UHGV virus genome: UHGV-0106768
Length of the DNA: 44,108 bases
Source: a virus
Strand: one strand, 5' to 3'
Shown here one piece after another: positions 105 to 38,132 of the stretch. Each line of letters starts with the position of its first letter. Position 1 is the first letter of the stretch. The position numbers and the translations under genes are program-made. The notes under the pieces are model-generated. The model worked only from the letters and a program-made list of their open reading frames with translations. It did no database searches and was not told the DNA's origin.

Positions 105-1097
105 ATGACTATATATCTTGAAAGAGGACCGTTTCTCACCATTCCCGATAAGCTGCATCCGGGACAGTACAGAGTGATCCGTAACCCCGACTGGCACGGA
201 GAACTGCCGGAGATCGTGTCCTTCACCGATTTTCTCAAATGGAACTACACACTGGAGTACGGTCAGTATATCCGAAAACTGCACTGCTATCGTCGGCTTC
301 CGCTGCCGTGGGGCGTTCCACAGGATGCCGAGATCGAAACTGTCATCATCGAGGAAGGCAGATATGACCGCATTGATCACGATTCCTTTGATATGTATGT
401 GATATGCGATGTCGTGTTCGAGATGAACGGCTGCCGGCAATGCCAGAAGTATATCGTGCACGGCTTTTACTGCTCTTACGGCGGTTCAGACTTTCTGTGT
501 GATGCGGAGCTGTACGATGGGCAGTTTATCCGGCTGAACAATCCTCTGGATGAGTTTCTGGTTCCCGTTCTCTCAAAGAAAGACTTTGAGAGCATTGCAC
601 AGGATATCCTCAACAGCTACTATTCATATAAGTCGAATTATCCTTGCCGCATCAATACTGCTTCGATTGCAAAGGCTATGGGGCTTGACATCAAGTATGC
701 CCGACTGTCAAAAAACGGAAATGTCAAGTCCAAGCTGATCCTGGACAAGCGGGATACGACCGTCTATGATAAGGAATGCAAAGCTGTCAAAATGCGGATC
801 GACAGTCCTACGATCCTTGTGGACGAGTCATTGGAGGAGGATGAAGCGCAGAACGCCATTATTCATGAGTGCGTTCACGCTTACCTTCACAACCTCTTCT
901 ATGAGCTGCAGAGCTACTATCGGAAAATGGTCGGCAGGAAGATGCCGGAGTTCAATGACTACTTCTATTCCAAGACGCAGCGTAGCTGCCTGAAATGGAT
1001 GGAAACACAGGCAAATGCCATCCCACGCTTTATTCAGATGCCGGAGGAGCAGGCATCCGATGTCATCCTGAACTTCTTCGAGCGACTCCCCGGATAG
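105..1097 (+). CDS. ImmA/IrrE-type (M78-like) zinc metallopeptidase domain protein; upstream part of a gene broken by an in-frame TAG
   Basis: AGGAGGG RBS just upstream of ATG 105. HExxH in AIIHECVHAYLH, followed by METQANAIPRFIQMPEE (E-x-x-AN...MP pattern of ImmA/IrrE). Ends at TAG 1095-1097, but the same frame stays open into 1134..2033. Confidence 0.7.
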   Translation: MTIYLERGPFLTIPDKLHPGQYRVIRNPDWHGELPEIVSFTDFLKWNYTLEYGQYIRKLHCYRRLPLPWGVPQDAEIETVIIEEGRYDRIDHDSFDMYVICDVVFEMNGCRQCQKYIVHGFYCSYGGSDFLCDAELYDGQFIRLNNPLDEFLVPVLSKKDFESIAQDILNSYYSYKSNYPCRINTASIAKAMGLDIKYARLSKNGNVKSKLILDKRDTTVYDKECKAVKMRIDSPTILVDESLEEDEAQNAIIHECVHAYLHNLFYELQSYYRKMVGRKMPEFNDYFYSKTQRSCLKWMETQANAIPRFIQMPEEQASDVILNFFERLPG

Positions 1098-1133
1098 CCT
1101 GACTGGGACGATTACAGAGAACTGATCGACCTT

Positions 1134-2033
1134 GTGAAATGGAAGTTCGGAGTATCCCGCAATGCTGCGAAGAAGCGTATCATTGAGCTTGGCTGGCCGG
1201 AGGTGCGCGGTGTGTATGTCTACAACACCACAGGATATGTTGAGGACTACGATGTCGAACTGAGATTCCCGGATGACTATACCTATACACTGTCATTCCG
1301 TCATATCTCTGATGTGTTCGCATCCTGCGAGACCTTTGCAGAGCTTGTAAGCTCCAAGAAGTTCATATATCTGGACGGTCATGTTGTCATCAACAGCGAC
1401 AAGTATATCCGTAAGGAACACGGCATCGCTATAGGCTTGACAGAGTATGCTAGACACCACATGGCAGAGTGCTGTCTGGATTTCAAGCGTATCTACGCAG
1501 AATTCGACTACAGCTATACCTATGGCGAGCTACACAAGGATGACCTGACCGAGATCACGGCCGAAAACCGTTCGTTCAGCGATGAACAGCGAAAGAAGAT
1601 CCGCATGGCAATGTATGAGATCACAGAAGAAAACGATAAACTGACCGTTCCTTCAGATGTCAACGAATTCGGCAAGGCGGTGCGTTTCCATATGGAGAGA
1701 TGCGGTCTCACCTCGGATCTGGTTGCAGACCGCAGCGGCATGGGTGTGAACACTGTCAATAAGATGCGCAGCGGTAAGAAAGTGAAGCTCGAAACGGTAC
1801 TGGCATTCTGTGTAGCTTTGGAGCTTGAGGAGTCGTTCCGCATTGACCTTATGCAGAAAGCAAAGGTCGATTATGATATGAACAATCCCGCCCACAGGTT
1901 GTATGTGACGATTTTTGAGCTTATGGAGAAGCCTAATGTGTTTCAGATCAACGAACTGCTGAAGGCAGAAGGCTTTACTCCGTGGACGAGAGACTGCGAG
2001 GAAAAGAAGCGGTACGCTAAGATAAGTATGTAA
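1134..2033 (+). CDS. Downstream part of the ImmA/IrrE-like gene, ending in an XRE-family helix-turn-helix
   Basis: Same frame as 105..1097, with no RBS or ATG of its own (the track start is GTG). FGVSRNAAKKRIIELGW is the usual C-terminal ImmA/IrrE motif. HTH-like segment GLTSDLVADRSGMGVNTVNKMRSGKK. Terminator follows. Confidence 0.65.
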   Translation: MKWKFGVSRNAAKKRIIELGWPEVRGVYVYNTTGYVEDYDVELRFPDDYTYTLSFRHISDVFASCETFAELVSSKKFIYLDGHVVINSDKYIRKEHGIAIGLTEYARHHMAECCLDFKRIYAEFDYSYTYGELHKDDLTEITAENRSFSDEQRKKIRMAMYEITEENDKLTVPSDVNEFGKAVRFHMERCGLTSDLVADRSGMGVNTVNKMRSGKKVKLETVLAFCVALELEESFRIDLMQKAKVDYDMNNPAHRLYVTIFELMEKPNVFQINELLKAEGFTPWTRDCEEKKRYAKISM

Positions 2034-2256: not shown

Positions 2257-2285
2257 TGTAAAAGAGAATTCGGATATGTTATGAT
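2257..2285 (+). promoter_or_regulatory. Candidate extended -10 promoter for the long leader
   Basis: TGTAAA - 17 nt - TATGAT, with TG one base upstream of the -10, inside an AT-rich tract. The -35 is weak. Confidence 0.3.
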
Positions 2286-2340
2286 ATAGACACAGTCAAG
2301 GACAGGCACCGCCGCCCATGACTGGAAACAACCTCTATAT

Positions 2341-2460
2341 GCCGGATGCATACGGCAGAGGACGGTCATATGAGAGCAGAACTGAACACCACAGGTATAT
2401 CCCGTGTTCGGAATCTGACATCATATGGCTACTCTGTGTCATGCATCCGGCTATTTTTCT
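2341..2460 (+). promoter_or_regulatory. About 111-nt extended hairpin plus T-tract (attenuator or terminator-like) in an untranslated leader
   Basis: Five nested helices (2341-51/2441-51, 2356-60/2432-36, 2364-72/2422-30, 2377-80/2414-17, 2384-89/2404-09), then CTATTTTTCT. Confidence 0.6.
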
Positions 2461-2520
2461 GCCGCGGCATTCGGAGCATGGCAAATCGATCATTACATTT
2501 GTTAGTCAGGGCGCGCACTG

Positions 2521-2644
2521 GCGGACAGATGCTCATAACGGAAAACAATGCCTGTGGTCTGTATAGACCGGAACAGGTACCGAAAGATTTTCCGTGTGGA
2601 CATTGTCTGCCTGCGTGCCTTTTCGCAGTAAGAGCATCTGCCGC
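2521..2644 (+). ncRNA. Three-way-junction structured leader element (unclassified cis-regulatory RNA candidate)
   Basis: Closing helix 2521-2534/2632-2644 (13 bp, one bulge). Inner helices 2538-45/2588-95, 2551-55/2573-77, 2556-60/2565-69 and 2611-15/2624-28. No credible ORF. Confidence 0.5.
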
Positions 2645-2650
2645 TGAGTG

Positions 2651-2671
2651 CGTTCCTTGCAGAAAGGAACG
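2651..2671 (+). promoter_or_regulatory. RBS-sequestering hairpin
   Basis: CGTTCCTT (2651-58) pairs perfectly with AAGGAACG (2664-71). The 3' arm is the only Shine-Dalgarno-like sequence before ATG 2675. Confidence 0.6.
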
Positions 2672-2674
2672 ATT

Positions 2675-3397
2675 ATGGAAAACGTGAATGTTCAGAATGC
2701 TGCCGCTATTACCGATCAGACCACACTCGGAGAACTGCTTGCAATGCTTGACCTCGCTGATAAGGCAGGCAAGATGCCGACACCGAGAGAACTGTTTGAG
2801 ACCGCCGGTGAGACGATTGCCGACATGAACGGCTGCACGCTCTTCAGCAACGGGTTCGCTGTCTACCAGAATATCACCGGACGTACTGTTGTCTGGCTGC
2901 CTTACTGTAAGAGCTTCACCTATTACTTCGGCAAGCTCCGTGATTCCGAGAAAGACACGCTGACAGAGACCTATGAGCTGCCGGATGGATTTCTGGAAAC
3001 ACAGCCGTGGGTGATCGCAGTAACACTGATCGGCGACCATCGTGTGGAGGCAAACAGCATGAACCGCACCGGCAGCCGCAAGGATACCACAGATTATGAC
3101 AGCGCCGATAACGGCGATAAAGACGGTGATGCAGAGGAGGCTTTGGCAGATCCGTATCGCAGGGCATTCAACTGGTATGACGGACGCATGGGCGAGAATC
3201 CGCAGGATGCCGTGGAGCGCAGAGAGACACGCGAGGAGATGCTTGCAGACATGACGGACAAGCAGCGTGAAGCCTTTATTATGTACTTCAGGGATGGTAT
3301 GACGCAGGAAGAGATTGCTTCATATATAGGGGTAAGCCGTGATTCCATAAATGACAGGCTTGAAGGTGCATTGAAAAAAGCAAAAAAATATTTTTGA
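2675..3397 (+). CDS. Sigma-70 region-4-like HTH regulator (sigma-factor-like protein of the kind seen in Clostridial ICEs and phages)
   Basis: The C-terminus DKQREAFIMYFRDGMTQEEIASYIGVSRDSINDRLEGALKKAKKYF matches the region-4 HTH pattern. The start is taken at ATG 2675 after AAGGAA. The track ORF starts at GTG 2648. Confidence 0.7.
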   Translation: MENVNVQNAAAITDQTTLGELLAMLDLADKAGKMPTPRELFETAGETIADMNGCTLFSNGFAVYQNITGRTVVWLPYCKSFTYYFGKLRDSEKDTLTETYELPDGFLETQPWVIAVTLIGDHRVEANSMNRTGSRKDTTDYDSADNGDKDGDAEEALADPYRRAFNWYDGRMGENPQDAVERRETREEMLADMTDKQREAFIMYFRDGMTQEEIASYIGVSRDSINDRLEGALKKAKKYF

Positions 3398-4390: not shown

Positions 4391-5233
4391 ATGCCTGACG
4401 TTCACGCACTGCTCAGTGCGTCCAGTTCAAAACAGTGGCTACACTGTCCGCCGTCAGTCCGTTTGCAGGAGGGATTTCCGAATGAGAGTTCAGTCTACGC
4501 CGCAGAGGGCACGTTTGCCCACGAGATCTGCGAATACAAGGTACGTAAGTACCTGAAGGAGCGTGTGAAGCGTCCGCAGTCCGAGGAATATGACACCGAG
4601 GAAATCGAGCAGATCACAGATGTGTATGCGGAGTTCGTGATCTCCATCATTGAGCAGATGAAGGAGAACGGCTGTGAGCCGCTTGCTTTTGTTGAGGAGC
4701 GTGTGGACTACAGCCACATTGCCCCTTCCGGCTTTGGCACGGCAGATATGCTCATCATCGGTAAGGACGAGCAGGGACGCGGAATCCTTCATGTATGCGA
4801 TTTCAAGACGGGTGCAGGCGTGTTTGTGGATGCAGACCACAACAGCCAGATGATGCTCTATGCGATCGGAGCTTTAGCCGCCTACGGCTTTTTGTATGAT
4901 TTTGAGATCGTGCGTATGAGCATCATTCAGCCTCGTCTGGATAATATCAGCACATTCGAGTGTAGCAGAGCCGAGCTTGAGGAATGGGGCGAGAGCATCA
5001 AGCCCATTGCGAAACTTGCCTACGAGGGCAAAGGTGAACAGCACCCCGGCGACTGGTGTCGGTTCTGCCGTGCAAAGCCTGTTTGCAAAGCGTGTGCCAA
5101 TGAAGCACTGGCACTCTGCCGTGAGGATTTCCTTGACCTCGATGCCGGAGCATTCGATGATACTGCGGAGGAAAGCGATATGACCGCACCATACGAAGCG
5201 GATATACAGACTGCCGTATTCAAGCAGCCGTGA
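4391..5233 (+). CDS. DUF2800-type PD-(D/E)XK (Cas4-like) nuclease; upstream part, ends at an in-frame TGA
   Basis: N-terminus MPDVHALLSASSSKQWLHCPPS and the Cys cluster CRFCRAKPVCKAC are typical of DUF2800. The frame continues open after TGA 5231-5233. Confidence 0.75.
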   Translation: MPDVHALLSASSSKQWLHCPPSVRLQEGFPNESSVYAAEGTFAHEICEYKVRKYLKERVKRPQSEEYDTEEIEQITDVYAEFVISIIEQMKENGCEPLAFVEERVDYSHIAPSGFGTADMLIIGKDEQGRGILHVCDFKTGAGVFVDADHNSQMMLYAIGALAAYGFLYDFEIVRMSIIQPRLDNISTFECSRAELEEWGESIKPIAKLAYEGKGEQHPGDWCRFCRAKPVCKACANEALALCREDFLDLDAGAFDDTAEESDMTAPYEADIQTAVFKQP

Positions 5234-5362: not shown

Positions 5363-5638
5363 GTGGTCGAAGGGCGCAGCAAGCGTGTATTCACAGATAC
5401 AAAAGCTGTGGTCGATACCGCTGTTCAGAACGGGTACACCGACCTTTACAAGCAGACGCTCATCACGCTGACGGAATTTGAAAAGATGATGGGCAAGAAA
5501 AAGTTCAACGAGCTGCTCGGTGAGTATGTCGCCAAGCCACCCGGAAAGCTGGCACTTGTGCCGGAGAGCGATCCGAGAGAACCCGTTGATCTCACAACAC
5601 CCGGTCAGGAATTTGAAGTTCTCTCTGATGATGAGTGA
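5363..5638 (+). CDS. Downstream part of the DUF2800 nuclease gene
   Basis: Same frame as 4391..5233 and open from 5234. The sequence LIPISELAEILPTLNRISSWIEAV...GYKVVEGRSKRVFTD reads as the usual DUF2800 C-terminal region. No RBS of its own. Confidence 0.6.
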   Translation: MVEGRSKRVFTDTKAVVDTAVQNGYTDLYKQTLITLTEFEKMMGKKKFNELLGEYVAKPPGKLALVPESDPREPVDLTTPGQEFEVLSDDE

Positions 5639-6327: not shown

Positions 6328-9213
6328 GTGGTGATTTTATTGAGCAGACGTGTACTTTCTATCGACCTTGAGACCTACAGCGATGTTGACCTTCCGAACT
6401 GCGGTGTGTACCGCTATGTTGAGGGGGATTTTCATATCCTGCTGTTCGCATATGCATTCGATGATGAAGAAACAAAGTGTATCGACATGGCCTGCGGTGA
6501 ACAGCTTCCCGCAGAGGTTGTGGATGCCATACACAATGAAAATATCATCAAATCTGCGTGGAATGCGCAGTTTGAGCGCATCTGTCTGTCAAAATATCTC
6601 GGCATCAGGCTTTCTCCGGACTCGTGGCAATGCACGATGGTATGGGCGGCATCGCTGTCCCTGCCGCTGAAGCTGGCAACGGCAGCACAGGCTTTGAAAA
6701 CTGCACAGCAGAAAGACAGTGTCGGTGAACGGCTGATCCGCTACTTTTCGATTCCGTGTAAGCCTACCAAATCTAACGGCGGTCGCACACGCAATCTGCC
6801 GGAACACGCTCCGGAGGACTGGGCGCTGTTCAAAAGCTACTGTATTCAGGATGTGGAAACGGAACGGGATATCCGCCGAAGACTTGAAAAGTTTCCGCTG
6901 ATGCCGCAGGAATGGGATTTTTATCACATGGATCAGCGGATCAATGACCGCGGCATCCTGATCGACAGAGAGCTTGTGCAGCAGGCAATTATCTGTAATA
7001 TGGCAATGTCTGAGGAGATGACCAAACGCGCCTATGCACTGACGGGACTTGAAAATCCCAATTCTGTATCTCAGCTGAAGTCATGGCTGGAAGATCGCGG
7101 CATCGAGGTGGATTCCCTCGGCAAAAAGAATGTCGCTTCTCTGATCACAGACCTTGACAAGCACAGTGCGGACGGTGAAGCTCTGGATATGATGAAGCTG
7201 CGGTTGCAGATGGCAAAGTCCTCTGTGAAAAAGTATCAGGCGGCAGAGAGATACATCTGTCAGGACGGCAGGGCGCACGGACTGTTTCAGTTTTCCGGAG
7301 CTCAGCGAACACAGCGCTGGTGTCTTACCGGCGATCATGAAATACTGACAGATAAAGGCTGGCTCAGGCTTGATAATTGGCAGGGCGGTAAGATTGCTTG
7401 TTGGAATCCTAATCAGGAAATGGTCTCGTTCCAGAAAGCGAACGTATTGTGCTTTGAATATGACGGTCCTATCTACCGCTATGAGGACAAACGGATCGAT
7501 CAGATCAGCACGCCGGATCACAAAATGCGTGTAAAGAAACGGTATAACGGCGAGTGGACGGATGACACTGTTGGCAATATGGAAAAGTATCGTCCTTCTA
7601 TTCCGTTTACCGGACGCAGACAAACGATGCCCGGCTTGGAGCACGCAGAACTGAGGGTACTGGTGATGACGCAGGCTGACGGCAGCTATAAAGAAGATGG
7701 AATGCTCTGCTTCCATTTCAAGAAGAAAAGGAAAATAGAACGGTGCAAACATCTGCTCAGACAGGCGGGCATTTATTTCACAGTGAATGAATGCAGGACA
7801 GATGGAACAACGCAGATCAAGATTCCTTCCCGTGAGCAGCCGATGTATCTAAGAATGTTTCATAACAAGACATTTGGAATGTGGCTTCTCGATGAAAGCC
7901 CGGATGTTTTCTTTGATGAGCTTCGGTATTGGGACGGATCGCAAAGCGCCAAAAACAGTATCCAATATACCACAACGAACAAAGTGAATGCCGATATTGT
8001 TCAGGCTTTTGCTCATACAAGTGGTCGCTGTGCAAAAATGAAACCGGTCATCCGGGATAAAGAACACCCGAATTGGAGCGATGCATACTATCTCGATATA
8101 TGGCTCACTCCGAAAAACTGTCATGAAATCAGAGTGAAGCCGACTATCTCGCAATTCAGCGGCAAAATATACTGTGCTGAAACCCCAACCGGATACTTCC
8201 TTGTAAGACGTAATGGTAAAGTGTGGGTAACAGGAAACAGCGGGCGCGGCATTCAATTACAGAACCTGCCGCAGAACCACATCTCTACCCTCGATGAAGC
8301 AAGAGAACTTGTCAAAATGGGCTGCTTTGACATGATCGAAGCACTGTACGGCAATACGCCGGATATCCTGTCACAGCTTATCCGCACGATGCTCATTCCG
8401 AAGGACGGCTGTGAATTTATCGTGGCAGACTTCTCCGCCATTGAAGCGAGAGTACTTGCGTGGCTTGCCGGAGAACAGTGGCGGCTCGATGCCTTCAAGC
8501 GTGGCGAGGATATTTACTGTGCATCCGCATCGCAAATGTTCGGTGTTCCGGTCGTGAAGCACGGCATCAACGGTGAACTGCGGCAGAAAGGCAAGGTCGC
8601 AGAATTGGCCTGCGGTTACGGCGGCGGTGCCGGTGCGCTGATCTCAATGGGCGCACTGGATATGGGACTGAAAGAGGACGAACTTCCCGACATCATTTCA
8701 AGCTGGCGCGACGCAAACCCGGAGATCGTGAAATTCTGGTATGCTGTGGAAAAAGCCGCGATTGAAACAGTCAAGGATCACAATGACAGATCGGTCGGCC
8801 GGATCGGATTTCAGTTTTCAGCAAATACACTGTGGATCGTTCTTCCGTCCGGACGCAGGCTTGCCTACATCAAACCGAGATTACAGCCGAACCGCTTCGG
8901 GCGTATGGCACTGACATTTGAGGGGCTTGGTGCAAACAACAAGTGGGTGCGCGGCGAAACCTATTCCGGCAAGCTGACAGAGAACATCACACAGGCAACT
9001 GCCCGTGATCTCCTTGCAGAAGCAATGCGCCGTATAGAACTTGCAGGGCTTGGAATCGTCGGGCATGTGCATGATGAGGTCATTCTCGAAGTGCCGAAAG
9101 GACAATACACGGTCGATGATGTATGCAGCATCATGAATCAGAATCCGAAATGGGCGGAGGACTTACCGTTGTCAAGTGCAGGATATACGGGTGCATGGTA
9201 CTACAAAGATTAA
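6328..9213 (+). CDS. Family A DNA polymerase with 3'-5' exonuclease domain, interrupted by an intein
   Basis: Exo I SIDLETYSD, RT(Q)RW...SGRGIQLQNLPQ, motif A IVADFSAIEARVLAWL, motif C HVHDEV. The true start may be TTG 6340. Confidence 0.9.
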   Translation: MVILLSRRVLSIDLETYSDVDLPNCGVYRYVEGDFHILLFAYAFDDEETKCIDMACGEQLPAEVVDAIHNENIIKSAWNAQFERICLSKYLGIRLSPDSWQCTMVWAASLSLPLKLATAAQALKTAQQKDSVGERLIRYFSIPCKPTKSNGGRTRNLPEHAPEDWALFKSYCIQDVETERDIRRRLEKFPLMPQEWDFYHMDQRINDRGILIDRELVQQAIICNMAMSEEMTKRAYALTGLENPNSVSQLKSWLEDRGIEVDSLGKKNVASLITDLDKHSADGEALDMMKLRLQMAKSSVKKYQAAERYICQDGRAHGLFQFSGAQRTQRWCLTGDHEILTDKGWLRLDNWQGGKIACWNPNQEMVSFQKANVLCFEYDGPIYRYEDKRIDQISTPDHKMRVKKRYNGEWTDDTVGNMEKYRPSIPFTGRRQTMPGLEHAELRVLVMTQADGSYKEDGMLCFHFKKKRKIERCKHLLRQAGIYFTVNECRTDGTTQIKIPSREQPMYLRMFHNKTFGMWLLDESPDVFFDELRYWDGSQSAKNSIQYTTTNKVNADIVQAFAHTSGRCAKMKPVIRDKEHPNWSDAYYLDIWLTPKNCHEIRVKPTISQFSGKIYCAETPTGYFLVRRNGKVWVTGNSGRGIQLQNLPQNHISTLDEARELVKMGCFDMIEALYGNTPDILSQLIRTMLIPKDGCEFIVADFSAIEARVLAWLAGEQWRLDAFKRGEDIYCASASQMFGVPVVKHGINGELRQKGKVAELACGYGGGAGALISMGALDMGLKEDELPDIISSWRDANPEIVKFWYAVEKAAIETVKDHNDRSVGRIGFQFSANTLWIVLPSGRRLAYIKPRLQPNRFGRMALTFEGLGANNKWVRGETYSGKLTENITQATARDLLAEAMRRIELAGLGIVGHVHDEVILEVPKGQYTVDDVCSIMNQNPKWAEDLPLSSAGYTGAWYYKD
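7321..8238 (+). mobile_element. Class-1-type intein with LAGLIDADG homing-endonuclease domain inside the DNA polymerase
   Basis: Starts CLTGDHEILT and ends VWVTGN followed by Ser. Block B is TPDH. LAGLIDADG-like motifs LRVLVMTQADGS and FFDELRYWDGS. Removing it restores GAQRTQRW-SGRGIQLQNLP. Confidence 0.85.
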
Positions 9214-10297: not shown

Positions 10298-10527
10298 GCA
10301 GAACCTGGAAAGACAGAAAAGGATATAAAACACGCAGAAAACGACACGGATATCCTGTGCCGGAAATCTGCAATTACACACGCGGCAGCTATGAAGATTA
10401 TGACCACAGCGATGAGGAACTGTATGTCGATGACCAGTGCTGCGAGAACTGCCGCTTTTGCGGATGTTGCCGTCATACACCGTTCCCGTCGGGCTGGTGC
10501 GAATACTGGAAGGACGGCACACATTGA
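10294..10527 (+). CDS. Small Cys-rich hypothetical protein
   Basis: ATGA start/stop overlap with the upstream gene. CCENCRFCGCCRH cluster. Confidence 0.5.
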   Translation: MSRTWKDRKGYKTRRKRHGYPVPEICNYTRGSYEDYDHSDEELYVDDQCCENCRFCGCCRHTPFPSGWCEYWKDGTH

Positions 10528-10964
10528 GAGAATATGTTGTCGAAAACGAGTTTATCAAGGCGGTAAAAGCGGCAGGCGGTGTGGCATACAAGCTGACATC
10601 GCAGACCGCAAACGGACTGCCGGACAGACTCGTTCTGTTCCCGGCGGCAAAGACGATTTTCGTGGAGCTGAAAGCACCGGGGAAAATGATGCGACCGTTG
10701 CAGCGTAAAAGACGGTATCAGCTTATGAAACTCGGCTTTCCGGTGCTGTGCATTGACAGGATGCCGCAGATCAAGCCGTTCATATCAGCAGCATTGTCAT
10801 GGACACCCGGTGAGCCGTTCCCGGAAGGCATCGGTGCGAAGATACCCGATCTGGAAAGGGCAACGCTGCCGACGGATATGGATAACTTCGGGGAAACGCT
10901 TGAACCCATCGATCCAGACAATCTGATAGAGTTTTATGAAATAGAGGACGGTGATGATGCATGA
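10524..10964 (+). CDS. VRR-NUC domain nuclease
   Basis: EFIKAVKAAGGVAYKL...GLPDRLVLFP...IFVELKAPGK matches the VRR-NUC (PD-(D/E)XK) pattern. The start is uncertain (TTG 10524 overlaps the upstream stop). Confidence 0.7.
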   Translation: MREYVVENEFIKAVKAAGGVAYKLTSQTANGLPDRLVLFPAAKTIFVELKAPGKMMRPLQRKRRYQLMKLGFPVLCIDRMPQIKPFISAALSWTPGEPFPEGIGAKIPDLERATLPTDMDNFGETLEPIDPDNLIEFYEIEDGDDA

Positions 10965-11458
10965 TTAACCCTAAACGCAGAGCTGTGAGAAAAAGCTGCT
11001 CATACTGCGGAACTGTCTTTACCTATGTCGGAAGTCATGGTACAAGAAATAAGCATTTTTTCTGTTCTCATGAATGCTATATTGCCTTTAAGACAAAGAA
11101 AGCAGAAGTGAAATGCGATTGGTGCGGCAAATCAATGCTGAAAAAACGCTCTGAAATATGGAGAACGGATCACAATTTCTGCTGCCCCGAATGCTGTTTA
11201 CTGTATAGGCAAAAGCAAGGCGAAACTTCATGGAATCATCGTGTGAATGGAATAACCGTACACAGGGGCATTTTGGAGAAGAAGCTCGGACGAGAACTGC
11301 GTGCGGATGAAGAAGTACACCATATCGATGGTAACCATTTCAATAATGATCCGGACAATCTCATCGCCCTTTCCAAATCGGAACACGCCAAAATTCATTC
11401 TTCTTGGAAAGCGAGGGACGAGTATGGAAAATACGTTAAAACGCAGTCAGATTCATGA
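10961..11458 (+). CDS. HNH endonuclease with N-terminal Cys4 zinc-finger-like motifs (possible free-standing homing endonuclease)
   Basis: EEVHHIDGNHFNNDPDNLIALSKSEHAKIH. CSYCG...CSHEC and CDWCG...CCPEC pairs. Confidence 0.8.
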   Translation: MINPKRRAVRKSCSYCGTVFTYVGSHGTRNKHFFCSHECYIAFKTKKAEVKCDWCGKSMLKKRSEIWRTDHNFCCPECCLLYRQKQGETSWNHRVNGITVHRGILEKKLGRELRADEEVHHIDGNHFNNDPDNLIALSKSEHAKIHSSWKARDEYGKYVKTQSDS

Positions 11459-12806: not shown

Positions 12807-12902
12807 CAATATACAGTCTGTATGATCCACCCCTTATTGACGACAGGAAGACGGCAAAGCGGCGACAATTCGGTTACGCCGCAAACCACGGAGGTGAAAA
12901 CT

Positions 12903-13388
12903 ATGGCTCGTAAGAACAAACGCCTAAAAACAGAATACCACAGAGGGCTCGGCTTTGATCCGAGAAAATATATTACGGCACCGGTGCAGCACCACACCAT
13001 CGCTCACAAGCCGCAGCGCGGTGACATCTGGTTTGCGGATCTTGGCTGTCATCCGGATTCCAGCGTGCAGAGCGGCATCCGTCCGGTTATCATTCTCTCG
13101 AATGATATGGGCAATGCACACGCCGACACGGTCAATATCATTCCCATGACGCGGCATCTGAAAAAGCCGGAGCTGCCGTGCCATACGCATCTGTTCCCCG
13201 ACAGTATTTCCGATCTTCATCAGCATCTATATCCGTCCATGATCCTGGCGGAGCAGCTCACGACTGTCAGCAAGCATGCGCTTCGCAGCTATGCCGGACA
13301 TATCTCGGACGCCGATGCGATGAACCGTATTGAAACCGCTGTCATTGCACAGCTTTTCATTGAAAGGAGACATTCCGAATGCCTGTAA
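12903..13388 (+). CDS. PemK/MazF-fold toxin-like protein
   Basis: GGAGGTG RBS. PQRGDIWFADLG...SGIRPVIILSNDMGN...VNIIPMT matches the PemK/MazF core. No antitoxin-like ORF is adjacent. Confidence 0.65.
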   Translation: MARKNKRLKTEYHRGLGFDPRKYITAPVQHHTIAHKPQRGDIWFADLGCHPDSSVQSGIRPVIILSNDMGNAHADTVNIIPMTRHLKKPELPCHTHLFPDSISDLHQHLYPSMILAEQLTTVSKHALRSYAGHISDADAMNRIETAVIAQLFIERRHSECL

Positions 13389-24352: not shown

Positions 24353-24594
24353 CGAAACAGGAATGTGCCATCGTGACAGCGTACACAGGGTTCGCTATGC
24401 TGAAGGGCAGCGACCTGAAATATCTGTACAATTATCTCTCCGGTCTCATCGGCAGGCCGGTGTATTCACACGAGATCCCTGCGGTCGCAGAAGCCTGCAA
24501 GGAACAAATACGAGAAGATTTCCTTGCCCTGTGCAGGAACGCAAAGGAGGCGGATGATGGATCATACAACAATGACGCTCGGCAGTCTGTTTGA
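24349..24594 (+). CDS. Hypothetical protein
   Basis: ATGA overlap with the upstream gene. 81-aa ORF. Confidence 0.5.
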   Translation: MTKQECAIVTAYTGFAMLKGSDLKYLYNYLSGLIGRPVYSHEIPAVAEACKEQIREDFLALCRNAKEADDGSYNNDARQSV

Positions 24595-26848
24595 CGGCTC
24601 CGGGGGCTTTCCGCTTGGTGGCATCCTCGCAGGGATCGAGCCAAGGTGGAGCAGCGAAATTGAACCTTTTCCGGTGCTTGTCACGCACAAGCGGCTGCCG
24701 CAGGTGCAGCACTACGGTGATGTATCTACGCTGAACGGCGCAGAGCTTCCGCCGGTGGATATCATCACCTTAGGCAGTCCTTGTCAGGACCTGTCTATTG
24801 CGGGCAAGCGTGCCGGAATCCATGACGGTGATCGGTCGAACCTGTTCTTTCAGGCGATCCGCATCATCAAAGAAATGAGGGATGCAACAAATGGACGATA
24901 TCCGCGATACTGCGTCTGGGAAAATGTCCCCGGCGCTTTCTCATCCAACGGAGGAAACGACTTCAAGGCTGTCCTCGAAGCAGTTATCGGAGTTAAAGAA
25001 AAAGGGATCGAGGTGCCTGCGCCTGAAAATCACAGATGGGCAAAATCAGACGTATATCTGGGAGACGGATGGAGCGTGGCTTACCGAGTTTTCGATGCTC
25101 AATACTGGGGTGTCCCCCAACGCAGAGCAAGAATCTACCTTGTCGCAGATTTTGCTGGCGAAAGTGCCGGAGAAATACTATTTAAGTCCGAAGGCGTGTC
25201 TTGGTATACTCCGCAGGGCTTCCGTGCGTGGCAAGGAGCTGCCGGAGGTGCTGAAGAAGGCACTGGAGAAACAGGCGGGCGGTCTGACGCTGGAGGTGGA
25301 ACCCTCTGCCTGAATACACAGGGCAACAGCGGCGTCGGCATCACCGAGGACAAGGCTCTCGCACTGGTCGCACAGGATCACGGGAATCATCCTGCCGTTC
25401 TTGCCGCAGGTTTTTCCACAGAGCATAGTGCAAAAGCACGCAGCATCGGATACGAGGAGGAAGTCTCCCCGACACTGAGAGCAGGTGTTGTTCCTGCGGC
25501 ACTCTCGGTCGAAAACCATCCGACAGACGGTCGTGTGAAGATCCGTGAGGACGACACCTGCCAGACACTTTGCAGCAGAGCCGGGACGGGCGGCAACAAT
25601 GTACCGCTTGTCGCTGAACCGATCACGCTGAAAATCAGGTCAGGCTGCGAAGGCGGCGGCAAGGGCGCTCTCTGGCAAACTGATAAATCTGCTACGCTTG
25701 CTACCAACAACAACCAGACACTCTTTCAGCCAGAGATCAAAGCCTTCGGTGTATGTAGCAAGCATTCCAATGCGATGATGTCAGACAATCCGCACAGTGG
25801 CTTTTACGAAGCGACCACGAGCAGAACGCTTGACCAGAGCGGTGGAAACTCCGTAACATCGAATCAGGGCGGCATCTGCGTGGTAGCACCTGCGCCGGAG
25901 ACATTCGATGTGCGTTTCACATCGGACGGCACGAAAAATGCTCGTGGGCATTGTTACCCGACAGACATTTCCCGATGCCTTGATACGAGCGAGGGATCGC
26001 CAGACTCGAATCACGGCGGTGTCGCTGTGGTGGCTCTTGAACCGGGGGCTGCATCACGTGTCGGCGGTCATGTGTACAGTGACGGCAAAAGCGGTACGCT
26101 TCGAGCCAATGCCGGCGATAATCAGCAGGCTGTTGTGGTCGCCGAGCCGGAGACCTATGCTCTGCAAGGCTCGATGATCGGTCGTGCCGACAAGAACGGT
26201 CCGCAGGGTGACGGCATCAATGAGGATGTGTGCTTTACGCTCAATACTTCAGACAGGCACGCTATTGCCGCACCCGATCCGTCTTTCACGATTTCCCGTG
26301 ACAATCACTTCGCCGTTTCGGAAGATATATCTGTTACGGCAGTTGCGAGAGGTCCTGCAACGGTCGCAGCCCCGGCAGATCACTACTGCACAAGCAAGAA
26401 TTCACACCACACGGTCGCTGTGCATGAGCAGGCAAACACGCTGGTCGCATCCGACTGGAAGGATCCGCCGCTTGTGAACGACCTTCCGAATGACGAGCCG
26501 GTATATATCGTAAGAAGGCTGACTCCGGTGGAGTGCGCCAGATTGCAGGGATTCCCGGACTGGTGGTGTGCCGACCTTGCGATTCCTGATCCTTCTGACG
26601 AGGAGATCGCCTTCTGGATGGAAGTATGGGAAACTTGGAGACAGATCACAAATCCCAAGGGCAAACCGAAAACGGAAAAGCAGATCCGCAAATGGCTGGC
26701 TAATCCGTACACGGACAGTGCCGAGTACAAGTTATGGGGCAACGGTGTCTCAGAGCCCGTTGTGTTCTTCGTGCTATCCGGCATTGCCTGGGCGGCACAG
26801 AATTCTGAAACTAATGCAGCAAATTGTGAACATTCTGATACTATGTAA
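24554..26848 (+). CDS. dcm: DNA (cytosine-5) methyltransferase with a variable region of about 450 aa made of tandem TRD-like repeats (probably multispecific)
   Basis: Motif I LFDGSGG, IV GSPCQDLS, VI WENVPG, VIII QRRARIYLVADF, IX RRLTPVECARLQGFP, X GNGVSEPV. AAGGAGG RBS before ATG 24554. Confidence 0.9.
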   Translation: MMDHTTMTLGSLFDGSGGFPLGGILAGIEPRWSSEIEPFPVLVTHKRLPQVQHYGDVSTLNGAELPPVDIITLGSPCQDLSIAGKRAGIHDGDRSNLFFQAIRIIKEMRDATNGRYPRYCVWENVPGAFSSNGGNDFKAVLEAVIGVKEKGIEVPAPENHRWAKSDVYLGDGWSVAYRVFDAQYWGVPQRRARIYLVADFAGESAGEILFKSEGVSWYTPQGFRAWQGAAGGAEEGTGETGGRSDAGGGTLCLNTQGNSGVGITEDKALALVAQDHGNHPAVLAAGFSTEHSAKARSIGYEEEVSPTLRAGVVPAALSVENHPTDGRVKIREDDTCQTLCSRAGTGGNNVPLVAEPITLKIRSGCEGGGKGALWQTDKSATLATNNNQTLFQPEIKAFGVCSKHSNAMMSDNPHSGFYEATTSRTLDQSGGNSVTSNQGGICVVAPAPETFDVRFTSDGTKNARGHCYPTDISRCLDTSEGSPDSNHGGVAVVALEPGAASRVGGHVYSDGKSGTLRANAGDNQQAVVVAEPETYALQGSMIGRADKNGPQGDGINEDVCFTLNTSDRHAIAAPDPSFTISRDNHFAVSEDISVTAVARGPATVAAPADHYCTSKNSHHTVAVHEQANTLVASDWKDPPLVNDLPNDEPVYIVRRLTPVECARLQGFPDWWCADLAIPDPSDEEIAFWMEVWETWRQITNPKGKPKTEKQIRKWLANPYTDSAEYKLWGNGVSEPVVFFVLSGIAWAAQNSETNAANCEHSDTM

Positions 26849-34992: not shown

Positions 34993-35466
34993 ATGGCTCA
35001 GAGAGGCAGAAAACCAACGCCTACGGCGATCAAAGAGCTGGAAGGCAATCCGGGCAAGCGTCCGCTGAATGATGCAGAGCCGAAGCCGGAACGCAAGGCA
35101 CCGCCCTGTCCGAAGTGGCTGGAGCCCGAAGCAAAAAAGGAATGGCGCAGGCTGTCAAAGCAACTGGAGCAGATTGGTGTGCTGACCGAGGTCGATCAGG
35201 CGGCATTCGCATCCTACTGTCAGGCATACGCACGATGGAAAGAAGCCGAGGAATTCATGACCCAGCACGGCACGATCGTAAAAACAAAATCAGGTTACTG
35301 GCAGCAGGTTCCGCAGGTATCCATTGCGCAAACTTATCTGAAGATCATGAACAAGATCGCAGAGCAGTTTGGCCTGACCCCGGCGGCAAGAAGCCGTATC
35401 ACTGCCGGCGCAGATATGAAAAACGCTGCCGTTGACGATATGGATGAACTTCTCGGAGGTGGCTGA
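34993..35466 (+). CDS. terS: Terminase small subunit, P27 family
   Basis: MAQRGRKPTPTAIKELEGNPGKRPLN N-terminus typical of the P27 family. GGAAGGAG RBS. Confidence 0.85.
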   Translation: MAQRGRKPTPTAIKELEGNPGKRPLNDAEPKPERKAPPCPKWLEPEAKKEWRRLSKQLEQIGVLTEVDQAAFASYCQAYARWKEAEEFMTQHGTIVKTKSGYWQQVPQVSIAQTYLKIMNKIAEQFGLTPAARSRITAGADMKNAAVDDMDELLGGG

Positions 35467-38132
35467 TGGCGAGAACGGCAAAGGCAAGAGAAAGACCTGC
35501 CAACTATCCGAAACTGAAGGATTATAAACCGACACGCTTTATGCTGCCGGAATCGCACTACGATGCGGCAAAGGCTGACCGAGCTGTGCGGTTCATCGAG
35601 AATCTCTGCCATACCAAAGGACGCTGGGCAGGCAAACCGTTCTGGCTGCTTCCGTGGCAGGAACAGATCATCCGGGATATTTTCGGCATCGTCAAAGAGG
35701 ACGATATGCGGCAATTTCGTACCGCCTATGTCGAAATTCCAAAGAAAAATGGGAAGCAGCTTGCACTGGATACACCGATCCCGACTCCGCAGGGATTCAC
35801 CAATATGGGAGATCTGAAGGTCGGAGATACAGTATTCGATGAAAACGGCATTCCGTGCCATGTGGTTGCGAAAAGTCCTGTGGATGATACAGAGCAAGCC
35901 TACAAGCTGACCTTCAAGGACGGCACCTCGATCATTGCCGGGGAAAGGCATCTGTGGAACTGTCAGTATATTTACGGCAAACGCAAGGATGTTCTCTGGA
36001 CGACCGGCGAGATCTATCGCAGGACAACGGAATACAGACAGCGTTTTTCCGACAGACCACAGACAAAGCGGGATTCCCTTATCCGAATTCCGGTGTGCGG
36101 TGTCCTTCAGACAGAAGCGGCAGTTTTACCGATTGATCCGTATCTGTACGGCTACTGGCTCGGAAACGGTAATGTGACCATGCCGGAGATCACTGTTCGG
36201 ACGGAGGATGTCGAGGATATCATCTCGAATATTCCGTATAAGGTACACAACCGTTATCCGCAGAAATGCGGCGGCAGTGAGATCATAAAGTACAATGAAC
36301 TGAAAGCAGTACTACTTGACAGCTTCCGTGAAAAGAAGATCCGACCAGAATATCTGAGGGCATCCGCAGAGCAGAGATGGGCATTACTGCAAGGGCTTAT
36401 GGATTCGGACGGCTGTATCGGTGAACGCAAAGGGCAAAGTGTGTATGTCACAACGCTGCGAGAGCTGGCGCTTTCCGTCAGAGAACTGCTGTGGTCACTC
36501 GGCATCAAAAATGCAGTGAAATGTGAGCCTTCTACACGGCATGGGTGGCCGACCGGCGAGATTTTGTATATCGTCCGTTTTACAACCTTTGATGACCAAC
36601 CGACATCAAGGCTTAAACGCAAAAATACACGCACACAGGCGCGGTTAAAGGAAACTCGCTCCTGTTTTCATTATCTGCTGGATATTCAACCTGTAAATCA
36701 TCCTGTAAAAATGCAGTGCATTCAGGTGGACAGTCCGAGTCACCAATATCTCGCAGGACCGTCATTTGTGCCTACGCACAACAGTGAGCTTGCAGCGGCA
36801 ATTGCACTGTATCTGCTCTACGCCGACAACGAGCCGTCTGCTGAGGTCTACGGCGCTGCTGCTGATCGTGGGCAGGCATCCATTGTATTCGATGTCGCCA
36901 AAAGAATGGTTGAGATGACACCGGCACTTCTGAAACGCTCAAAAATCATGGCGGCGACAAAGCGTCTGGTGAATTACAGTAATGTTGGCTTTTATCAGGT
37001 GCTTTCAGCGGAAGTCGGTACAAAGCACGGATTGAATGTATCCGGTCTGGTTTTGGATGAACTTCATGCCCAACCGAACCGCAGCCTTGTGGATGTTCTC
37101 ACAAAGGGTTCCGGTGATGCCCGTACTCAGCCGCTGTACTTCCTGATCACAACCGCCGGAACGGATCGCAACAGCATCTGCTACGAGTATCACACGAAAG
37201 CAAAAGATATTCTGGACGGCAGGCGCATTGATCCGTCCTTCTATCCTGTGATCTACGGCTTGAACGATGATGACGACTGGAACGCAGAGGAGTCATGGTA
37301 TAAGGCAAATCCCTCGCTCGGATACACTATCGCCATCGACCGAGTCCGCGATGCTCACCGGGAAGCCCTTACAAATCCCGCTGAAGAAAATGTATTCCGT
37401 CAGCTGAGGCTTGACCAGTGGGTAGGCAGTGCGGTGGCATGGATTCCGGAGCATATCTACGACAGGGGCAATCTTCCGATCGACCTCGAAAAGCTCCGGG
37501 GACGGGAGTGCTACGCAGGTCTTGACCTATCCAGCACATCGGATATCACGGCATTTGTGCTGGTGTTCCCTCCGCTGCATGACGGCGAGAAATACATCGT
37601 TGTCCCGCACTTCTGGCTGCCGAGAGAAACGCTCGATTTACGAGTACGGCGAGACCATGTTCCCTACGATGTATGGGAGCGCATGGGATTATTTCATATC
37701 ACCGAGGGCAATGTGGTCGATTACAATTTCGTGCGGAAAACGATCAACGAGCTGCACACGATGTACAACATCAAGGAAATTGCTGCCGACCGCTGGAATG
37801 CCACACAGCTTATCACAGACCTTGAGGGAGACGGATTTACCGTTGTTCCGATGGGCATGGGCTTCAAGGATATGTCCCCGCCGATGAAGGAACTGTACAA
37901 GCTCATACTCGAAGGGCAGTTTATCCACGGCGGCAACCCTGTACTCCGCTGGATGGCAGGAAATGTGGTCGCTGAAATTGATGCAGCGGAGAACATCAAA
38001 CCAAGTAAAAAGAAAAGTACAGAAAAGATTGACGGTATCGTGGCATGGATCATGGCACTTGACCGCTGCATCCGCCACGAAATGCAGGGCAGTGTCTATG
38101 ACGAACCCGGCCACGATCTTGTGGTCATCTGA
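35466..38132 (+). CDS. terL: Terminase large subunit interrupted by an intein in the Walker A motif
   Basis: PKKNGK / SELAAAIALYLL flank the insert. Walker B LVLDELH. C-terminal nuclease region. ATGA overlap with terS. Confidence 0.9.
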   Translation: MARTAKARERPANYPKLKDYKPTRFMLPESHYDAAKADRAVRFIENLCHTKGRWAGKPFWLLPWQEQIIRDIFGIVKEDDMRQFRTAYVEIPKKNGKQLALDTPIPTPQGFTNMGDLKVGDTVFDENGIPCHVVAKSPVDDTEQAYKLTFKDGTSIIAGERHLWNCQYIYGKRKDVLWTTGEIYRRTTEYRQRFSDRPQTKRDSLIRIPVCGVLQTEAAVLPIDPYLYGYWLGNGNVTMPEITVRTEDVEDIISNIPYKVHNRYPQKCGGSEIIKYNELKAVLLDSFREKKIRPEYLRASAEQRWALLQGLMDSDGCIGERKGQSVYVTTLRELALSVRELLWSLGIKNAVKCEPSTRHGWPTGEILYIVRFTTFDDQPTSRLKRKNTRTQARLKETRSCFHYLLDIQPVNHPVKMQCIQVDSPSHQYLAGPSFVPTHNSELAAAIALYLLYADNEPSAEVYGAAADRGQASIVFDVAKRMVEMTPALLKRSKIMAATKRLVNYSNVGFYQVLSAEVGTKHGLNVSGLVLDELHAQPNRSLVDVLTKGSGDARTQPLYFLITTAGTDRNSICYEYHTKAKDILDGRRIDPSFYPVIYGLNDDDDWNAEESWYKANPSLGYTIAIDRVRDAHREALTNPAEENVFRQLRLDQWVGSAVAWIPEHIYDRGNLPIDLEKLRGRECYAGLDLSSTSDITAFVLVFPPLHDGEKYIVVPHFWLPRETLDLRVRRDHVPYDVWERMGLFHITEGNVVDYNFVRKTINELHTMYNIKEIAADRWNATQLITDLEGDGFTVVPMGMGFKDMSPPMKELYKLILEGQFIHGGNPVLRWMAGNVVAEIDAAENIKPSKKKSTEKIDGIVAWIMALDRCIRHEMQGSVYDEPGHDLVVI
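35757..36782 (+). mobile_element. Class-3-like intein (Gln1, Trp-Cys-Thr triad) with LAGLIDADG homing endonuclease in terL
   Basis: Starts QLALDTPIPTPQGF and ends FVPTHN followed by Ser. Block B is GERHLW (W codon 35955-57). Block F is MQCIQVD (C codon 36717-19). Block G is PTHN. LAGLIDADG-like YGYWLGNGN and LLQGLMDSDG. Confidence 0.8.

Follow-up and report, generated by a model that had tools for sequence, protein, structure and literature searches.

The window analysed here is the whole 44,108-nt stretch of the UHGV virus genome UHGV-0106768. It is a complete phage genome in which nearly all genes are on the + strand, and between 2.7 and 42 kb all of them are. An ImmA/IrrE-like and helix-turn-helix (HTH) gene, split in two, lies at 105..2033 on the same strand and is followed by terminators at 2047-2066 and 2097-2115. 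After a non-coding region the gene order is a sigma-like gene, DUF2800 exonuclease, Gp2.5-like SSB, PolA, helicase, primase, NrdD, methyltransferases, terminase, portal, protease and capsid. The subject of this study is a very long hairpin in the non-coding region, here called hairpin A, together with a second structured element, element B, located between hairpin A and the sigma-like gene. An earlier inspection of the letters alone (the sequence-only reading) had described five nested helices at this place, a T-tract directly after them and, at 2675, the first ATG linked to a ribosome-binding site (RBS). All of these were present in the window. Hairpin A was found to be one copy of a genuine, widespread and conserved RNA structure that has no Rfam entry. 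The features of the region are listed in Table 1.

Table 1. Promoter, RNA elements and first gene of the early region (positions of the window)
Feature	Position	Strand	Sequence and remarks
Extended -10 promoter	2277..2285	+	TGTTATGAT; TGnTAnnnT; conserved spacing to CAGTCAAGG
P0 small hairpin	2293..2324	+	CAGTC...GACTG closes the inner stem; predicted 5' end of the transcript
CA-rich linker	2325..2340	+	GAAACAACCTCTATAT; predicted single-stranded; family consensus about AAAACAACACCTCAAA
Hairpin A	2341..2451	+	unbranched, 111 nt, about 41 bp; perfect 11-bp basal stem GCCGGATGCAT/ATGCATCCGGC
5' arm of hairpin A	2341..2356	+	GCCGGATGCATACGGC; near-invariant; candidate decision point
U-tract	2452..2460	+	TATTTTTCT; abuts the basal stem of hairpin A
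Long hairpin of element B	2505..2623	+	5' arm GTCAGGGCGCGCACTGGCGGACAGATGCTCATAACGGAA, 3' arm ...TTCCGTGTGGACATTGTCTGCC-TGCGTGCC; irregular; then TTTT (2620-2623)
Alternative partner in element B	2632..2644	+	GAGCATCTGCCGC; alternative, better partner of GGCGGACAGATGCTC (2520-2534); competes with the 3' arm of element B
RBS hairpin	2652..2670	+	GTTCCTT-GCAG-AAAGGAAC; buries the Shine-Dalgarno sequence of the sigma-like gene (ATG 2675)
Sigma-like gene	2675..3397	+	N-terminal domain of unknown fold and sigma-70 region 4

Folding of 2335-2465 with RNAfold joined the helices into one unbranched hairpin with a minimum free energy (MFE) of -59.2 kcal/mol. None of 200 dinucleotide shuffles was as stable (shuffle mean -34.8, standard deviation 3.9, z = -6.23). 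In the MFE fold two of the helices described earlier were lengthened, to GCAGAG/CTCTGT and GGTCATATGA/TCATATGGCT, and a total of about 41 pairs was obtained, four of them G-U. The single arm of the sequence-only reading was retained, and its count of about 35 bp was raised accordingly. Inverted repeats of at least 18 nt with a partner within 160 nt were found at four places in the 44-kb window, three of them in 2100-2660. The geometry of hairpin A is that of an intrinsic terminator, a GC-rich and perfect 11-bp stem (GCCGGAUGCAU/AUGCAUCCGGC) being followed by UAUUUUUCU on the transcribed strand. Its dimensions, however, are not the usual ones. Hairpin A comprises about 41 bp and 111 nt (91-129 nt in the family), compared to a stem of 7-9 bp (9 +/- 2 in B. 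subtilis) and a loop of 3-5 nt in typical intrinsic terminators (figures quoted in PMC10325885). Hairpin A was not reported in a consensus terminator scan of the window, which is explained by its size. A search of the whole window against Rfam 15 gave no match at the gathering score, and nothing relevant at E <= 10 in 2000-2750.

Related loci were first anchored on the sigma-like protein and then collected by an exact scan of IMG/VR with the first 15 bases of the hairpin. Further scans were made with a gapped pattern, in one genome per species and in metagenomes. This resulted in 110 distinct candidate sequences, of which 108 folded as one unbranched hairpin closed at both ends, with lengths of 91-129 nt (median 113) and a mean free energy of -56.5 kcal/mol. 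Every member obtained in the scan with the 5' arm only, in which no tail was required, had a T-rich tract after the hairpin, and on the + strand only. In the loci anchored on the sigma-like protein the upstream non-coding DNA was kept, sometimes better than the protein itself, with insertions and deletions that are not multiples of three. The variants came from phage contigs, from metagenome-assembled genomes (MAGs) of Ruminococcus and Oscillospiraceae and from metagenomes, which had been sampled in rumen, human gut and anaerobic digesters. According to the genome records the hosts were Ruminococcus (including R. flavefaciens), Oscillospiraceae and other Clostridia MAGs of rumen and gut; a few contigs were binned elsewhere. 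In Ruminococcus, Oscillospiraceae and related Clostridia, hairpin A is carried by temperate phages and, in a few cases, by mobile elements of another kind. A near-identical prophage is present in Ruminococcus flavefaciens (contig NZ_JAQYRV010000113, locus L095). No match to 2030-2680 was found by blastn among GenBank phages and PLSDB plasmids, and a profile-based protein search aimed at more remote loci brought in practically no new ones. The Rfam scan proposed by the sequence-only reading was extended from the window to 14 related loci and gave no family matching the hairpin. The only hit in these loci was an unrelated gut-2 RNA (RF02990, 45.7 bits) at 1558-1605 of locus L023, about 2 kb upstream of the hairpin A of that locus.

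A covariance model was built on 15 similar copies, and pairs were counted on 52 distinct copies aligned to the model. The model-made alignment also contained reverse-strand matches, which were filtered out before counting. Of the pair cells 94% were standard, and compensatory two-sided changes were observed at 14 of the 31 modelled pairs, in counts that ignore kinship. Conservation and covariation of the helices in homologous regions, named as a test in the sequence-only reading, were thus both observed. G-U cells were far more frequent than A-C cells (110 versus 38). The model found the element in all family loci, and in each of them the + strand scored far above the - strand (108.9 versus 31.0 bits in the window). 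An alignment-free comparison agreed with this, the + strand fold being better than that of the reverse complement in 83 of the 108 variants (mean 5.0 kcal/mol). Base changes in the 3' arm were for the most part transitions that convert G-C or A-U to G-U. The base of the hairpin was conserved in sequence. The inner 35-60 nt fell into 19 unrelated sequence clusters and were still structured, with a mean z of -2.1 compared to shuffles and negative values in 49 out of 51 cases. RNAalifold on a plain MAFFT alignment of all 51 hairpins yielded no more than a local helix of 4 bp, which was due to misalignment of the variable apex. A seed subset, the covariance model and per-sequence folds were used in its place. 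The G-U excess, the stability of the + strand fold, the strand scores of the model and the one-sided T-tract all point to a hairpin that acts as an RNA read from the + strand.

A coding function of the open reading frames (ORFs) 2318..2566 and 2346..2687 was considered and rejected. The frame was not kept in relatives and the ATG at 2318 was not conserved. Among 51 variants the hairpin lengths were evenly spread modulo 3 (16/20/15), and 30 of these variants had stops in all three + frames. A protein translated from this segment had been named as an observation that would speak against an RNA element; none is encoded here.

The two arms of hairpin A were very differently constrained. The comparison was made in 18 loci found via the protein or element B, independently of the hairpin sequence. 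The first 15 nt of the 5' arm occurred in these loci in two variants with a mean identity of 0.993, and the last 15 nt of the 3' arm in ten variants with a mean identity of 0.79. When the 3' arm was used as the query, 14 true copies were found; 13 had the exact 5' 15-mer, and the remaining one was one base off. The canonical 3' arm was present in only 45 of the 108 variants. A motif located higher in the 5' arm, GGATGTTCA, was outside any search pattern and was nevertheless more than 90% conserved, with a varying pairing partner. The near-invariant sequence at the 5' end of the hairpin is a palindrome at 14 of its 16 positions. The 5' arm alone is predicted to form a stem-loop, GCCG-GAUGCAUA-CGGC, of -6.1 kcal/mol with a 4-bp stem and with the palindrome AUGCAU inside its 8-nt loop. 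This design is seen again in element B and in a sequence-divergent version of the hairpin in locus L013 (CCUG-UGUGCACG-CAGG). A search of the window for trans targets or antisense partners of the 5' arm gave none. The extra constraint on the 5' arm, taken together with the predicted local stem-loop, suggests that this arm may be the switch.

Hairpin A belongs to a unit with a constant order: extended -10, P0, CA-rich linker, long hairpin and U-tract. A candidate TG-extended -10 promoter about 50 nt upstream had been proposed in the sequence-only reading. The hairpin begins 56 nt past the -10 box at 2277-2285, and the spacing of the promoter is kept in relatives. TGnTAnnnT ends 7 nt (in two cases 5 nt) upstream of the conserved motif CAGTCAAGG in 23 of 26 leaders that bear this motif. 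An extended -10 followed after 4-8 nt by CAG was present in 56 of 104 distinct family members of an enlarged set. The motif opens P0, which folds in nearly all of the motif-bearing leaders, and the pairing of P0 was kept with differing partners (CAGTC/GACTG, GTCAAG/CTTGAC, GTCAGGGGA/TCCCCTGAC and CAGC/GCTG). The linker, of about 15 nt, was unpaired in all leader folds and conserved in sequence. Judged from the position of the promoter, transcription would start at about 2291-2293, and the predicted RNA from this start to the U-tract is about 165-170 nt long. Two terminators of ordinary kind precede the promoter, so that transcription of the upstream genes has already been terminated at this point. 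A 24-nt inverted repeat (2101-2124/2231-2254), 83% complementary and arranged around a 106-nt AT-rich spacer, was also observed just upstream of the early promoter. It carries the motif AAAAAATGGGGG in both orientations; its left arm overlaps the terminator at 2097-2115, and its right arm, CAGCCCCCATTTTTTATG, is conserved in related loci. This repeat is possibly an operator region or an alternative pairing.

The remaining 215 nt or so upstream of the ATG had been regarded as plain untranslated leader. This view had to be abandoned, as the segment holds a second conserved structured element with an A-like hairpin and a hairpin that sequesters the RBS. The region 2495-2674 was even more conserved than hairpin A. 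The 5' block of element B was invariant across loci whose sigma protein is 53-83% identical, and a T-tract after the long hairpin of element B was observed in most loci. In the basal helix and lower stem 92.9% of the cells were paired, and two pairs had changed on both sides with pairing kept (GGGCGCGCA/TGCGTGCCC versus GGGTGCACA/TGTGCGCCC). The 5' arm of element B resembles that of hairpin A (GGC.G..GATG(T/C)TCA(T/G)A(C/A)), and element B of loci L015 and L090 resembles a second sequence class of hairpin A. Alignment of the hairpin A model end to end with element B gave a weak score of 5.5 bits in the window (2504-2631) and 22.7 bits in locus L017. The two long hairpins are apparently related. 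The local fold predicted for the 5' arm of element B, GUCAG-GGCGCGCA-CUGGC, has a 5-bp stem and an 8-nt loop, G-GCGCGC-A. A loop variant, G-GUGCAC-A, keeps the palindrome through a double change.

The alternative pairing in element B (2632-2644 with 2520-2534) had 98.7% of its cells paired and one compensatory change (GATGTTC/GAACATC in locus L015), and it was part of the MFE fold of the full leader. Both pairings of element B, X/X' and X/X'', fit the sequences. A pseudoknot of the helices H1 and X/X'' was considered and rejected; H1 and X/X' are read as one A-like hairpin and X'' as the alternative partner. The RBS hairpin was conserved, with GTCCTGCAGAAAGGAC or GTCCGCAGAAAGGAC in its place in diverged loci, and it covaried with GTCC...GGAC versions. 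No Rfam family matched element B. The region 2495-2674 looks like a two-state switch in its own right, and element B is specifically tied to the sigma-like gene. In locus L015 the sigma-like gene occurs twice in tandem, and a separate copy of element B precedes each of the two (1409-1617 and 2793-3003); hairpin A was not detected in this locus by the hairpin A model. A further observation concerns the apex of hairpin A, in which 2388-2398 (ACCACAGGTAT) is complementary at 10 of 11 positions to the inner hairpin of element B at 2548-2558 (ATGCCTGTGGT). On inspection this complementarity was not obviously kept in other loci, and it could be a loop-loop contact or a coincidence.

The protein encoded directly downstream, the sigma-like protein, matched Pfam Sigma70_r4_2 (6.8e-10) in residues 188-235 only, and its similarity to PDB and NCBIfam entries was likewise confined to region 4. 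An AlphaFold model was poor outside region 4, with a mean predicted local distance difference test score (pLDDT) of 49.5 and values below 50 for residues 65-181. A sigma-like homologue on the same strand, at most 1.2 kb downstream, was found for 51 of 72 distinct hairpins, the number with at least 1.5 kb of downstream sequence. The first downstream ORF varied; sigma-like proteins, DUF7768, a ParA ATPase, other region-4 proteins and unknowns were all seen. Across loci the first RBS-linked ORF began 50-280 nt past the hairpin, often at 50-80 nt. As a promoter would not fit into the 50-80 nt before these many first ORFs, their transcription has to proceed across the hairpin. As the first gene of the hairpin-headed early operons varies, the hairpin would gate the operon and not the sigma gene specifically. 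In locus L187 (reverse strand) a unit of hairpin A, U-tract, RBS hairpin and gene was tandemly duplicated (about 140-250 and 852-960). The second copy lacks the promoter and P0 module, and hairpin A can therefore stand between the genes of one operon.

The best-supported reading of these observations is that hairpin A may be a giant intrinsic-terminator attenuator that heads the early operon. The probability of this reading is put at about one half; both the termination and its control by read-through are deduced from the anatomy of the region. A large leader attenuator, terminator or protein-binding arm had been proposed in the sequence-only reading as a gate for the sigma-like regulator; this proposal is partly supported, and the gating would have to be extended from this one gene to the whole early operon and to element B. 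According to the mechanism envisaged, transcription would start about 7 nt past the extended -10 box (2277-2285), and the nascent RNA would present P0 at its 5' end, the CA-rich single strand and then the long hairpin. Once zipped to its perfect GC-rich basal stem beside the U-tract, the hairpin would function as an oversized intrinsic terminator, and a leader RNA of about 165-170 nt would be released. As there is no promoter room before the downstream early genes, these genes, the sigma-like regulator and then the replication genes, would be expressed by read-through only, and the element would thus be an attenuator at the head of the operon. The decision point would be the 5' arm, in which GCCG-GAUGCAUA-CGGC could be held by a sequence-specific factor or by folding kinetics. 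As long as this local stem-loop is held, the last 11-15 bp could not form beside the U-tract and RNA polymerase would run on. Element B and the RBS hairpin would repeat the checkpoint just before the sigma-like gene, and the alternative pairing in element B and the RBS hairpin may add translational control.

Several points weigh against this mechanism. The full hairpin (about -58 kcal/mol) exceeds the local 5' stem-loop (about -6 kcal/mol) in stability by a wide margin, and the default in the absence of a factor would therefore be a near-complete shut-off of essential early genes. The U-tract is broken at its second base in most copies (UAUUUUU). The local 5' stem-loop is a prediction, and as its sequence is invariant it lies outside the reach of covariation. 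The covariation of the hairpin was observed among related sequences, in an alignment that leans to the model structure. Finally, long double-stranded RNA is a natural substrate of RNase III, and the element possibly serves processing rather than termination.

A more specific version of the attenuator mechanism is offered tentatively and is more probably wrong than right. Here, hairpin A and element B would be the cis sites of a new phage antitermination switch, a 'reverse zipper'. A factor of phage or host, most attractively the co-inherited sigma-region-4 protein with its unknown N-terminal domain, would hold the stem-loops of the 5' arms, with their palindromic 8-nt loops G-AUGCAU-A, G-GCGCGC-A and G-GUGCAC-A, and the two tandem terminators would stay unzipped. 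If true, this switch would be a positive-feedback gate for the decision between lysis and lysogeny in abundant Ruminococcus phages of rumen and gut, and a new class of RNA/protein regulation.

The unit formed by promoter, P0, linker, hairpin and U-tract could instead serve mainly to produce an independent small RNA of the phage, about 165-170 nt in length. Such an RNA would act in trans, by titration of a protein or in immunity in the manner of the leader-derived RNAs of P4 and P1, and read-through would be secondary. The unit is indeed discrete and conserved: its promoter lies at a constant distance, a hairpin forms its 5' end and a strong putative terminator closes it. The constraint on the 5' arm and GGATGTTCA, which exceeds the needs of pairing, suggests recognition of a partner. 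However, the missing promoter room before the downstream genes means that the element must also be a leader, the L187 copy lies between two genes without the promoter and P0 module, and no complementary target was found elsewhere in the window. A role as small RNA is considered unlikely as the primary function, although the small-RNA and attenuator readings are mutually compatible.

An antitermination-resistant insulator is an improbable explanation. The hairpin would then block transcription coming from the upstream lysogeny genes or from host promoters, and the early genes would be transcribed by another route. The upstream genes are indeed on the same strand, stems of at least 14-15 bp make terminators resistant to processive antitermination (PMC10325885), and mobile elements, Tn916 among them, can have insulating terminators at their ends (PMC11658703). 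Upstream transcription, however, already meets two canonical terminators after the upstream gene, and a conserved extended -10 promoter at fixed spacing lies between these terminators and the hairpin. In many loci, moreover, the next gene follows the hairpin too closely for a promoter to fit in between.

Little probability is likewise given to a function in RNA processing or stability, for example as an RNase III site that creates a defined 5' end of the early mRNA, or as a protective structure. About 41 bp of nearly continuous double-stranded RNA would suit such a function, and the palindromic hexamer of the basal stem (AUGCAU, or GCGCGC or GUGCAC in element B and L013) would presumably suit a dimeric enzyme that binds double-stranded RNA. 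The conserved U-tract that all copies have right after the stem, on the other hand, is not required for processing, and a symmetric double-stranded site would constrain both arms, whereas the 3' arm of hairpin A is free to vary. Very improbable, finally, is a role at the DNA level, in which the near-palindromic 16-mers of the arms would be operators of a dimeric DNA-binding protein (possibly the sigma-like HTH protein), or the region a cruciform or replication origin: GCCGGATGCATACGGC is palindromic at 14/16 positions, the equivalent sites of element B keep their palindromy by the double change from GCGCGC to GTGCAC and the region precedes the replication module, but G-U cells far outnumber A-C cells, the + strand folds better, the 'operator' copy in the 3' arm is poorly conserved, the inner 80-90 nt covary to keep a pairing that operators do not need and the T-tract is one-sided.

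The closest known relative of the attenuator proposed for hairpin A would be, by analogy and with its logic inverted, the zipper-type attenuator of pLS20. This attenuator, cATT, was described in 2026 for pLS20 and related Gram-positive conjugative plasmids (PMC13401043). The pLS20 leader consists of a weak stem-loop (-6.4 kcal/mol), which is its most conserved part, a long imperfect stem-loop and a terminator, and it precedes a long conjugation operon (PMC13401043). In both cases the element precedes the first gene, in the 5' leader of a long mobile-element operon with a single direction of transcription, and in the present case the promoter lies 56 nt upstream. The weak stem-loop at the 5' base of the long stem in pLS20 has a predicted counterpart here (-6.1 kcal/mol), formed by the most conserved part of hairpin A, and the outcome would here, as in pLS20, hinge on further zipping of the long stem. 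An unknown RNA-binding factor acting on the weak stem-loop is likewise suspected by the authors of the pLS20 study (PMC13401043). In pLS20, however, the terminator is a small hairpin of its own downstream of the long stem, with a 5' half that pairs with the weak stem-loop, and complete zipping gives the antiterminator, which is the default form there. No separate small terminator hairpin was found in 2441-2470 of the window, and the zipped form of hairpin A does not have the arrangement of an antiterminator. Here the zipped stem abuts the U-tract, so that a terminator should result from zipping; the logic would be inverted and the default would probably be 'off'. Furthermore, there is no sequence similarity to cATT, a downstream ConAn1 gene (PF17362) is absent and the element is carried by a phage.

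Processive antitermination of the conAn/canT type was considered and rejected, as there is no ConAn1 domain and there are no clear internal terminators. ConAn1 (Pfam pXO2-34, PF17362) was matched neither by the five proteins encoded after the hairpin in the window nor by the first ORFs of 10 other loci. Terminator-like sites in 2.7-42.5 kb were weak and, counted on both strands, not clearly above expectation (28 versus 17.8 +/- 4.5 and 24 versus 21.2 +/- 4.8 in shuffled sequence).

TerR of pLS20 has a 15-bp stem that gives resistance to processive antitermination, long stems being hard to override (PMC10325885). Hairpin A resembles TerR in a stem far beyond the usual 7-9 bp that is followed by a U-tract, in a mobile element of Firmicutes, and imperfections of the stem and an interrupted U-tract are tolerated in TerR as well. 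TerR differs in its position at the end of an operon, whereas hairpin A, with about 41 bp, 111 nt and a conserved sequence, lies at the start of the operon just after the promoter. In the late leader of phage lambda, transcription from PR' yields the 6S leader RNA, ends at tR' and is read through under Q (reviewed in PMC9388147). The likeness to the PR'-tR' arrangement would be functional: a short terminated leader RNA of about 170-190 nt and a big downstream operon that is transcribed only when the terminator is overcome. The lambda terminator is, however, of ordinary size, its antiterminator Q is known and encoded upstream, and an early/replication operon is concerned here. In the systems of BglG, SacY and LicT, the ribonucleic antiterminator (RAT) is a conserved small hairpin made from the 5' strand of the terminator, and when it is stabilised by the protein the terminator cannot form. 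The functional analogy to such overlaps lies in a conserved 5' element and a 3' half that is free to vary. Hairpin A differs in having no similarity to the RAT consensus and in being roughly five times larger as a terminator. The flanking genes that were scanned included none for a CAT-PRD protein, no search aimed at RAT-type systems having been made.

Hairpin A, known in at least 108 variants of sequence and absent from Rfam, defines a new and well-supported family of structured RNA. It occupies the control point of the early operon, and the phages concerned, in which gene regulation is essentially unstudied, belong to dominant fibre-degrading Firmicutes of rumen and gut. If hairpin A is an attenuator, long-stem 'zipper' attenuation, described for conjugative plasmids only, would be extended to phages, with inverted logic and in a tandem arrangement. 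The invariant 15-mer, the predicted 5' stem-loop and the two U-tracts are candidate sites for the gating of phage induction. The cassette is also a candidate for a tight off-switch or insulator in genetic tools for Clostridia, and the invariant 15-mer is a handy metagenome marker for this group of phages.

Some further observations were made in the genes of the window. The ORFs 105-1097 and 1134-2033 match consecutive parts of one PHROG, phrog_4031 (profile 120-311 and 336-622), and the ImmA/IrrE-like protease with its HTH regulator is therefore apparently split in two genes. The DUF2800 exonuclease, of the PD-(D/E)XK type, is also distributed over two ORFs (4391-5233 and 5363-5638, profile 1-249 and 294-368) with a gap of about 130 nt, which could be due to an interrupted gene, a frameshift or an intervening sequence. 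In the PolA ORF (6328-9213, 961 aa) the polymerase domain covers only residues 640-961 or thereabouts, and residues 332-657 match PHROGs of the PhoH/RNR type. The methyltransferase (24524-26848, 774 aa) and the large terminase (35466-38132, 888 aa) each match their family in two stretches that lie apart. From these patterns, inteins or inserted domains are suspected in PolA, the methyltransferase and the large terminase. Two ORFs for HNH endonucleases lie at 10437-11458. A gene for a MazF/PemK-like growth inhibitor (12822-13388) was found inside the replication module, between helicase and primase. The only other long inverted repeat of the window, 15847-15867/15918-15938 (TTGGGGCAACGTGGGGCAAGT/ACTTGCCCCTACTTGCCCCAA), has internal GGGGCAA repeats and lies just after the primase gene, where it is a candidate replication origin or terminator.

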